Shown here piece by piece: positions 22,992 through 25,903 of a stretch of 25,903 nucleotides of DNA. The notes below the pieces were generated by a model. That model did no database searches and was not told the origin of the DNA. It was given only the letters and a program-made list of their open reading frames with translations. Position 1 is the stretch's first letter; every line of letters begins with the position of its first letter. This DNA comes from Candidatus Fraserbacteria bacterium (lineage in GTDB: Bacteria > Bipolaricaulota > Bipolaricaulia > RBG-16-55-9), in contig JBBIOR010000008.1 of assembly GCA_037443265.1 (NCBI GenBank), forward strand, positions 47,196 to 73,098, read 5' to 3'. A program made the translations under genes and the position numbers.

Positions 22992-25032
<2,041 letters not shown>

Positions 25033-25702
25033 GGTTCGGCTACCGAACGGCCGTTATAAAATCCGGCTATATGCTGGAACAGCTCGCTGTATCCCATGCT
25101 ACCGAGGAGGTGAGAACGCATGGGTGGAGCCAATCAGCAGGAAAGGCTCTCGATGGCCGAAGCGAAGAAGTGGTTCCTTGCAGGATTCATCGAGGGGGAA
25201 GGCAGCCTTTGCGTCTCGATCAAAGAACATCCGACGAGCAAGTTTGGTTACCTTGTTGATCCGGAGTTCTTCCTGTATCAGCACAGGAGTGGCATCAAAT
25301 TGCTCGAGATGGCCAAAGAGCTCTTTGGCACTGGGCGTATCGCGCCAAAGTCGGGCAGCGAAGGCGTTCTAGTCTTCTCCATCGTGAGTCGCCGCAGTCT
25401 TAAAGAGAGGGTGATCCCTTTCTTTGAAAAGTACATGATCTTCTCCACGAAGCGCGATGTGTTTGAGCGCTTCAAGGAGATCGTAGAGGCCATGGAAGAA
25501 CGCAAGGAGCACTTAACCCCTGAGGGGCTGGCACGCATCGTCGAGAAGGCGTATGCGCTGAACCCGGCCAGCAAGGGGAAGGAGCGCAAAAGAACGCTCC
25601 AGGAGGTAGTCGAGAGAATCCTCAGAGGCCGTACGCCGGACACCCCCAGCCGGGGTGAAGATATGGCCCGATCTTCGCGGCGACGCGAAGCCAACAAGAA
25701 TG
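25033..25702 (+). mobile_element. Group I intron (IB-like) at 23S position L1923, 670 nt
   Basis: Splits AACTATAACGGT|CCTAAGGTAGCGA. P1: exon TATAACGGT pairs IGS GCCGTTATA (25050-58) with U.G at the splice site. P3 TCCGGC 25062-67/GCCGGA 25635-40; P4 TGCTGG/TCAGCA; P6a CTCTCGA/TCGAGAG; P7 G(A)GGCCG/TGGCCC; P8 CACCCC/GGGGTG; P9 CTTCGCG-GCGA-CGCGAAG region; terminal G 25702. Confidence 0.96.
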
Positions 25703-25707
25703 CCTAA
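25120..25707 (+). CDS. Single-motif LAGLIDADG homing endonuclease, I-CeuI-like
   Basis: FLAGFIEGEGSL motif, then TSKFG..VDPEF...QH, TGRI..KSGS and VIPF as I recall from I-CeuI; SD GAGGAGGTGA 25104-13. Alternative ATG at 25153. Confidence 0.92.
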   Translation: MGGANQQERLSMAEAKKWFLAGFIEGEGSLCVSIKEHPTSKFGYLVDPEFFLYQHRSGIKLLEMAKELFGTGRIAPKSGSEGVLVFSIVSRRSLKERVIPFFEKYMIFSTKRDVFERFKEIVEAMEERKEHLTPEGLARIVEKAYALNPASKGKERKRTLQEVVERILRGRTPDTPSRGEDMARSSRRREANKNA

Positions 25708-25903
25708 GGTAGCGAAGTTCCTAGTCGGGTAAGTTCCGACGCGCATGAATGGTATAACGACTTGGGCGCTGTCTTAACGAGAGGCTCGGCGAAATTGAAG
25801 CGTCGGTGAAAACGCCGACGACCCGCGGCAGGACGGAAAGACCCCGTGGAGCTTTACTGGAGCTTGGCATTGGGTCTTGGTGGCCGCTGTGTAGGATAGG
25901 TGG
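25703..25903 (+). rRNA. rrl: 23S rRNA, 3' exon (partial, runs off the window)
   Basis: CCTAAGGTAGCGAA...GTCGGGTAAGTTCCGAC...GACGGAAAGACCCCGTGGAGCTTTACT. Confidence 0.97.

Follow-up and report, generated by a model that had tools for sequence, protein, structure and literature searches.

The window analysed here is a stretch of 25,903 nucleotides (nt) from Candidatus Fraserbacteria bacterium (assembly GCA_037443265.1, contig JBBIOR010000008.1, positions 47,196 to 73,098 of the forward strand), the final 2.9 kb of which form a 23S ribosomal RNA (rRNA) gene truncated by the end of the contig. This gene is split by a group I intron whose open reading frame (ORF) for a LAGLIDADG homing endonuclease passes through the ribozyme core, crosses the 3' splice site and stops in the downstream rRNA exon, an ending that comparison with homologous introns marks as rare and apparently derived. 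The principal features of the locus are the following:

22993..25032, + strand: 23S rRNA exon 1 (Rfam LSU_rRNA_bacteria, 1696.8 bits, model positions 1-2150), with the 3' end ...AACUAUAACGGU, the 5' part of helix 69
25033..25702, + strand: group I intron of 670 nt without P2, recognized by exon restoration, covariation-supported helices and a sub-threshold Intron_gpI match
25120..25707, + strand: LAGLIDADG homing-endonuclease ORF, 195 codons plus TAA, recognized by Pfam LAGLIDADG_1 and PDB matches
25703..25903, + strand: 23S rRNA exon 2, beginning CCUAAGGUAGCG and containing TAA 25705-07

Excision of 25033-25702 gives back ...AACUAUAACGGU|CCUAAGGUAGCG exactly, and the bacterial large-subunit (LSU) rRNA model aligns both flanks. 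The boundary has no slack: no sliding is possible, and the 3' splice site is G25702|C25703. The insertion interrupts helix 69 of 23S rRNA at what we take to be the I-CeuI site. In Escherichia coli numbering of this helix it presumably follows U1923 (hence L1923) and places the ORF stop at 1926-1928, and we assume that the I-CeuI intron of Chlamydomonas chloroplasts occupies the same position, with the recognition sequence split at the same place. The ORF closes with a GCC codon that straddles the 3' splice site, followed by TAA 25705-25707, which lies 2 nt into exon 2. A first-pass annotation of this DNA had proposed that the frame runs through the core and the splice site to a stop in the exon, and the ORF at 25120-25707, together with the exact restoration of the exons, confirms it. 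Exon 2 has stops in all three frames no more than 30 nt from the splice site (UAA at +3, UAG at +8 and UAA at +28), so that on the precursor any ORF overrunning an L1923 intron at its 3' end soon meets one of them.

The insert is classed as a group I intron on three structural criteria, namely a U-G pair in P1, a covarying P3-P9 core and a terminal omega G (the last intron base is G25702), and it appears to merit this placement despite its low Rfam score because all three are present. A permissive search matched the whole Intron_gpI model (1-253) at 16.9 bits against a threshold of 50 (E 0.099), and a gathering-threshold Rfam search of the window reported LSU rRNA alone at this place and no group I model; we attribute the low score to the ORF insertion of about 460 nt and the lack of P2. 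At L020, L028 and L054-L056, which are among the homologous loci described below, the final intron base before CCUAAGG is A, so the canonical omega G is absent there.

The secondary structure was evaluated in an alignment (A1) that comprises 27 homologous introns, counting that of the window, from as many species-level genomes. Its elements in the window are as follows:

25025-32 / 25050-57, + strand: P1, in which exon AUAACGGU pairs with the internal guide GCCGUUAU
25062-67 / 25635-40, + strand: P3, UCCGGC with GCCGGA, 100% paired, both-side changes at 4/6 pairs
25072-77 / 25134-39, + strand: P4, 100% paired and almost invariant, its 3' strand being ORF codons 5-7 (AAU CAG CAG)
25082-85 / 25127-30, + strand: P5, enclosed by P4, both-side changes at 4/4 pairs
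25093-99 / 25118-24, + strand: P5a hairpin, CCCAUGC...GCAUGGG, 93% paired, both-side changes at 5/7 pairs
25140-42 / 25619-21, + strand: P6, GGA with UCC, invariant
25147-52 / 25611-16, + strand: P6a, CUCUCG with CGAGAG, 96% paired, both-side changes at 4/6 pairs
25627-32 / 25663-68, + strand: P7, GGCCGU with AUGGCC, 97.5% paired, both-side changes at 3/6 pairs, in a pseudoknot with P3
25641-46 / 25652-57, + strand: P8 hairpin of 17 nt, CACCCC-CAGCC-GGGGUG, both-side changes at 6/6 pairs
25673-79 / 25684-90, + strand: P9 hairpin, CUUCGCG-GCGA-CGCGAAG, with a GCGA loop, 96.8% paired, both-side changes at 6/7 pairs
25691..25702, + strand: 3' tail CCAACAAGAAUG, the last intron codons, ending in omega G25702

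The U25032-G25050 wobble of P1 marks the 5' splice site, its U-G is kept in 27/27 introns, and P1 encloses a further hairpin, GUUCGG/CCGAAC. Across the alignment, the 59 pairs of 10 helices are 95.9% paired, against 83.1 +/- 0.6% in shuffled columns (0/500 shuffles as high as observed) and 34-44% when partners were slid as a control; both-side changes affect 32/59 pairs, against 20.9 +/- 1.5 in shuffles (again 0/500 as high). P4 and P6 never or nearly never vary and are hence uninformative for covariation either way. A conserved P3-P9 core with a P3/P7 pseudoknot is thus present and supported by covariation. The same covariation establishes as real the elements that the first-pass annotation had named (P6', P7, P3', P8, P7' and P9) and supports the register it had assumed, with the body of the ORF in the P6a loop. 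The register of the Rfam alignment, which puts the ORF in the P5 loop and P4' and P5' near 25553-25570, was rejected on the strength of the covariation, which supports placing P4' at 25134-39 and P5' at 25127-30, with the ORF inside the P6a loop.

The protein is predicted to be a single-motif LAGLIDADG endonuclease of the homodimeric type. Pfam LAGLIDADG_1 matches residues 20-122 with 64.2 bits (cut-off 23.1), and the LAGFIEGEG motif occupies residues 20-28, of which A21, G22, E25, G26, E27 and G28 do not vary among 56 sequences; one residue of this motif we take to be catalytic. At E<=1, 104 PDB sequences matched, including single- and double-motif LAGLIDADG enzymes, the best being 4lq0 (1.5e-42), and the matches end by residue ~165. 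Among them is I-CeuI (2ex5, E 7.2e-29, query 10-125 to chain 45-163), a homologous single-motif enzyme that differs in being organellar and in having a longer N-terminus. The AlphaFold2 model has a mean predicted local distance difference test (pLDDT) score of 85.4, with 90-98 for the blocks spanning residues 11-140, 82 for 141-150 and 50-59 for 171-195; it places the tetrapeptide RILR in a confident helix at residues 160-169 (pLDDT about 90). The exon-reaching tail would add 17 low-confidence residues that are not part of the predicted fold. The ORF contains no internal stop or frameshift, none occurring in the 167 codons upstream of the conserved P6'/J6/7 anchor, and the ratio of nonsynonymous to synonymous substitution rates (dN/dS) over codons 12-163 is 0.075-0.16 relative to L029, L003, L038 and L039; the ratio was saturated for L002, L037 and L004, and comparisons with L005, L044 and L047, made ungapped across indels, were discarded. 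The ORF is intact and, as these ratios suggest, under purifying selection.

Both ends of the ORF double as ribozyme core. The frame crosses P6a', P6', J6/7, P7, P3', P8, J8/7, P7', P9 and the 3' splice site. At the 5' end, codons 3-11 derive from P5', P4', P6 and P6a, the 5' strands of P6 and P6a being codons 7-11; at the 3' end, codons 164-195 extend from P6a' through the 3' tail, with P6a'/P6' as codons 164-168; and the body, codons ~12-163, is located in the P6a loop. The ORF shares about 33 nt with the core at its 5' end and 92 nt at its 3' end, where 5 nt of exon are added. P6a'/P6' lie in or beside the block AGAAUCCUCAGAG, which is almost unchanged across the family. The block GAAUCCUCAGAG, within codons 166-170, is invariant in 27/27 introns at every codon position and is preceded by a nearly invariant A, and AAUCAGCAGGAAAG (codons 5-9) is unchanged in 27/27 at every codon position save one near-invariant base. 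Because the two blocks are all but invariant at all codon positions, they appear to be constrained at the RNA level, and the conserved peptides NQQER and RILRG appear to be at least partly dictated by the ribozyme.

The start site is likewise embedded in the fold. The start codon, AUG 25120-22, lies within the 3' strand of P5a, and the Shine-Dalgarno sequence GGAGGUGA lies in the P5a loop (25093-25124), partly paired by an inner UACC/GGUG stem. This inner stem is invariant, the outer stem covaries across the 27 introns (5/7 pairs), and the hairpin has a fold energy of -14.6 kcal/mol (z -2.7). By analogy, P5a resembles the hairpin that hides the ribosome-binding site (RBS) of I-TevI. Separately, the proteins P0025, P0037 and P0047 have an upstream AUG, in J3/4-P4, in frame with the endonuclease, which yields an N-terminal extension beginning MLEQL....

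The intron belongs to a large, phylum-hopping bacterial family with the ORF in the P6a loop. The database held 926 protein relatives at E<=1e-10, and loci were gathered from a one-genome-per-species set (35, of which 28 are close relatives) and from metagenomes (80). The records of close relatives name Bipolaricaulota, Melainabacteria, Parachlamydiales, Verrucomicrobiae and Acidobacteriota, and further Latescibacterota, Chloroflexi-type classes, Nitrospirales and others. Among the 116 sources (115 loci plus the window), 24 were dropped for want of the P6'/J6/7 anchor or the exon-2 motif or because they ran off the contig end, and the 92 that carry both gave 77 distinct 3' ends. In 77/77 the ORF passes P6', J6/7, P7 and P3' into P8, and in 75/77 it stops inside the intron, the stops being distributed as follows:

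12/77: stop inside P8
27/77: stop UGA or UAA at the P8/J8/7 junction
28/77: stop in J8/7-P7', 24 of them the UAG in P7'
8/77: stop in P9 or the 3' tail
2/77: stop in exon 2, the window and L004

The position of the stop is not conserved across the family, and the variable length of P8 determines how the conserved J8/7-P7' sequence is phased. In two of three possible frames the ORF meets a stop built from the ribozyme itself, either the UGA at P8/J8/7 or the UAG in P7', which arises in-frame in relatives with UAGUC at P7'. At J8/7 the three ORF frames account for 34, 32 and 11 of the 77 ends, and the window, in whose frame P9 holds no stop, is in the rarest. Five classes of stop position, with the next in-frame stop used after a lost one, point to core creep, defined as the extension of an ORF, after loss of its stop, up to whichever in-frame stop follows (Edgell, Chalamcharla, Belfort 2011, PMC3073962); on that published definition, the parallel with core creep drawn by the first-pass annotation is apt. 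The same annotation had raised the question of whether homologues also lack an internal stop, and the 75 of 77 ends that stop in the intron argue against a designed feature. It had further reckoned with a stop before P7 in homologues as a sign of recent stop loss. Homologues stop after P8 and not before P7, so the core overlap is itself a family trait and this part of the proviso falls away, whereas the exon stop of the window does fit a recent stop loss.

The comparison with close kin locates the change. In the window P8 measures 17 nt, and its 5-nt loop CAGCC exceeds that of the closest relatives by 2 nt; their P8 has a length of 15 nt, or of 15 nt with whole triplets added. All relatives available as DNA at 80-87% amino-acid identity (L029, L002, L003, L037, L038 and L039-41), whose P8 is 15, 18 or 21 nt, stop at a TGA 47 nt before the splice site. 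The corresponding triplet is still present in the window:

25656..25658, + strand: UGA at the P8/J8/7 junction, the stop of the closest relatives, out of frame in the window

The window frame skips this UGA because the L8 loop is 2 nt longer. Four close matches found among 40 genomes of the same order and class stop at the same TGA, three of which duplicate 3' sequences of loci in the species set letter for letter and so add little. The window's own family is represented by 8 further genomes, none with a close match, which is weak evidence because drafts of this kind often lack rRNA genes. The window's tail is absent from the 21 closest proteins (78-93% identity), which measure 167-187 amino acids, and a search with the tail only of a 5.8-billion-protein collection returned 12 matches, none of which covers the tail. 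Relatives whose P8 is shorter by 2 nt are present in sequencing runs X2 and X12. After the UGA has been bypassed, the probability of reaching the exon through the remaining 15-16 codons without a stop is 0.53 by composition, and 0.546 of 20000 shuffles did so; with a chance of about 0.5, the long open tail needs no special explanation. These comparisons indicate that the exon stop of the window is a derived and rare state.

An exon stop has nevertheless arisen elsewhere. L004, from an unrelated lineage, uses the same exon-2 UAA as the window; it is identical to the protein P0029 at 179/195 positions (16 differences), and both end ...NTNA at the exon UAA. L042 is identical to L004 over the entire ORF and flank and is not an independent case. 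Exon-coded C-termini occur in 2/119 other proteins listed, P0029 and P0096, the latter, which enters the exon in another frame, ending ...PKVAKFLVG after 9 exon codons and using the +28 UAA. As both L004 and P0029 keep it, the exon-stop state can persist with an intact ORF. P0032 (187 amino acids), 92% identical to this second lineage (L004 1201-1785), ends after W187 in the P9 region, its end being either a regained internal stop or the end of a contig.

Among characterized introns, the nearest counterpart is the L1917 intron of Synechococcus sp. C9, described by Haugen et al. 2007 (PMC1995217) as a bacterial group I intron of 23S rRNA helix 69 that, like the one in the window, has no P2 and carries a LAGLIDADG gene. 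Its ORF runs from P6 through P7, P3 and P8 and stops in P9 (PMC1995217), inside the intron, unlike the window ORF, which crosses the 3' splice site; its insertion site is 6 nt upstream of that of the window intron. The 2007 table of bacterial introns in PMC1995217 has L1917, L1931, L1951 and L2593 and no L1923, and the candidate-phyla rRNA insertion sites given in the 2024 survey PMC11270868 are 1917, 1931, 1952, 2593, 2604 and 2657. At L003, a further group I intron, related to the first and carrying a LAGLIDADG ORF of its own, lies immediately upstream at positions 350-1113 (= L128), as also seen at L039-L041 and L052; the P6'/J6/7 block of the window recurs in these second, upstream introns of L003, L039-41 and L052. 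The upstream intron of L003 begins after ...GUAACUAU (L1917), is separated from the L1923 intron by a 6-nt micro-exon, AACGGU, and has a last position other than G; at L052 the spacing between the two introns looks different (12 nt).

Core creep of the T4 td/I-TevI type, as presented in PMC3073962, offers the closest mechanistic likeness, with an ORF extended by stop loss, ORF ends that double as P6/P7 and an RBS-hiding hairpin. The host gene differs: in the window it is an rRNA gene rather than td, so there is no exon translation to interact with. Table 1 of PMC3073962 gives an 81-nt overlap for the LSU intron of Synechococcus lividus, involving P6/P7/P3/P8/P9.0/P9, and the overlaps listed in that source end within the intron, whereas that of the window reaches the exon. 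Our literature search found no report of an intron ORF that stops in a downstream rRNA exon, subscription journals being mostly outside its reach, so that this is no proof of novelty; with similarly partial coverage, it found no paper on an 'L1923' group I intron or on non-stop messages or transfer-messenger RNA (tmRNA) in connection with a group I intron endonuclease.

What the exon stop means for expression follows in part from frame arithmetic. A complete ORF with its stop is present on the DNA and on unspliced RNA only. The linear excised intron ends ...AAU G-3', one base into codon 195, without a stop, and in a full-length circle the frame would comprise 269 codons, 75 of them past codon 194, ending at TGA 25257-25259. 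These results agree with the first-pass annotation, which had called the excised linear intron a non-stop RNA, had assigned the terminated ORF to unspliced RNA only and had given the circle 75 additional codons. As a side observation, an AUG at 25071-73, in J3/4-P4, opens a 62-codon frame to TGA 25257-59, which is the frame and stop of the full-length circle. In bacteria, non-stop mRNAs are rescued by tmRNA. The free linear intron of the window resembles such a message in ending with an open ORF, and the genome encodes a tmRNA (131.7 bits, cut-off 47); unlike an ordinary non-stop mRNA, its start site is in a stable, conserved hairpin of the folded ribozyme, and its translation is hypothetical.

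We regard it as fairly probable that the window contains a mobile group I intron with its endonuclease in which a 2-nt loop change has allowed core creep to proceed across the splice site. Under this reading, the longer L8 loop would have shifted the ORF into the third frame, which meets no stop in J8/7, P7', P9 or the 3' tail and would be read on into exon 2, where CCUAAGG supplies a universally conserved UAA. Enzyme synthesis would continue, with the unspliced and probably still nascent pre-23S rRNA as message. Since polymerase has about 480 nt to transcribe between the start site and the 3' half of the core, ribosomes most likely load on the growing transcript. Translation and splicing would be mutually exclusive on any one molecule at a given moment, because a ribosome in codons 1-11 or 164-195 would have to melt P4-P6a or P6a'-P9. 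The buried start site may keep expression low, as described for I-TevI in PMC3073962, and translation of the spliced-out intron, which has no stop, would leave stalled ribosomes to be cleared by tmRNA. The exon-reaching extension most likely has no effect or a mildly deleterious one and does not serve as a device.

Several points weigh against this account. The Intron_gpI score is low (16.9 against 50 bits). The dN/dS values come from long branches (dS 0.7-1.2) and cannot show selection since the frame change. The stop loss is 'recent' only in a relative sense, the nearest relative having 93% protein identity and being known as a protein alone, and the under-representation of the window's frame (11/77) is uncorrected for shared ancestry. 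In the second lineage the exon stop has been kept across 8% protein divergence, which suggests that it is not strongly selected against and may leave room for function. The read check described below draws on contigs of possibly the same sample. Finally, we infer splicing, translation and the identity of the translated RNA species from sequence.

The alternative closest to the first-pass annotation, which had proposed that the splicing state gates endonuclease production, is that the exon stop is a selected gating device: the unspliced precursor would be the sole productive mRNA, splicing would switch synthesis off, and products of the free intron would be tagged by tmRNA and destroyed. Its sequence logic holds, in that the free intron has no stop and gating would be a legitimate consequence of this; the genome encodes a tmRNA, the ORF is otherwise intact and apparently under purifying selection, and the buried, conserved start site suggests low expression throughout the family. 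An unrelated lineage has also reached the same end state and kept it across 8% divergence, and a third variant, P0096, enters the exon in another frame. Against it, an exon stop occurs in only 2/77 distinct 3' ends: the state is not conserved in a clade and is a singleton among the window's kin, all of which stop in the intron with P8 lengths that differ by multiples of 3 and keep the UGA in frame. The tail of the window is unique in the 5.8-billion-protein collection, and the exon is reached at coin-flip odds once the UGA is skipped. We therefore consider a selected device unlikely, and the interpretation of the first-pass annotation appears partly supported: its logic is right, the gating function is conjectural, and a recent, rare frame slip agrees better with the comparative data.

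Alternatively, the stop loss could be the first lesion of a decaying gene. This view assumes that the intron is fixed in a 23S gene that probably has no second copy; empty sites would be gone, selection on the endonuclease would have lapsed and the lost stop would be the first visible defect of the homing cycle. A single copy of the intron was found in the genome, a metagenome-assembled draft (44 contigs, 88% complete), and no close relative shares the exon stop; both points accord with decay, as does the cycle of gain, degeneration and loss that PMC11270868 cites for rRNA-intron endonucleases. Yet neither a frameshift nor an internal stop occurs in the 167 codons upstream of the anchor, the catalytic motif is preserved and dN/dS is low, and a C-terminal extension modelled with low confidence need not harm the enzyme. 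The patchy presence of the intron (4 close matches in 40 genomes and 0/8 in its own family) also suggests ongoing mobility, a weak argument given that rRNA is often unassembled. We find incipient decay doubtful.

Regarding the reality of the DNA, sequencing run X1 holds 96% of sampled words of the stretch; its Logan contigs, built by a different assembler, cover 25057-25545 with 0 differences, and one of them spans 25528-25857 with 0 gaps at a word depth of 28. None of the runs listed as containing the stretch was an RNA run. No X1 difference is listed at 25599-25652, 11/16 substitutions of that contig being unlisted. These contigs exclude an assembler slip and not a read-level error, because X1 may be the sample of origin. 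That the two extra L8 bases are a sequencing or assembly error, the true ORF ending at the UGA, is highly improbable: the draft assembly, the G+C-rich hairpin at the site and the singleton status of the exon stop would permit it, and the independently assembled X1 contig without gaps, the atypicality for short reads of a 2-nt insertion outside a homopolymer and the natural variation of loop lengths among relatives oppose it. Upstream of the 23S gene, no 16S rRNA, 5S rRNA or tRNA gene was found in window positions 1-22992 by the Rfam gathering search or ARAGORN, and the 23S gene seems not to be linked to a 16S gene on that side.

Taken beyond the creep of the stop across the splice site, a bolder proposal for the family can be envisioned, to which we assign a low probability: the enzyme would normally be made solely in the few seconds before the core has been transcribed and folded, by ribosomes that load on nascent pre-23S rRNA and traverse the core, and in the exon-stop variants splicing would act as a hard off-switch, tying enzyme dose to the precursor. 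If this were true, the abundant free intron would be a non-stop RNA whose product is handed to tmRNA, enzyme dose would follow the unspliced precursor, and sister strains with a 15-nt or a 17-nt P8 would form a natural on/off pair for translation versus self-splicing.

The puzzle to which these introns speak is a known one. ORFs that double as ribozyme core raise the question of which RNA is the message for a bacterial rRNA-intron endonuclease, and of how ribosome and folding share one molecule. The L1923 intron family offers an unusually clean handle on it, because both ends of its ORF are core, its start lies in a covarying hairpin and its stops are ribozyme nucleotides. On present evidence the window holds a rare, derived variant and no new mechanism, one in which a 2-nt loop change relocates termination from the intron to the exon. 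Were the 195-residue form made and active, productive translation would have to occur on unspliced pre-rRNA; otherwise the variant would represent the first step of endonuclease decay. Its main value lies in the natural pair of 15-nt and 17-nt P8 introns, which bears on which RNA serves as the endonuclease message.

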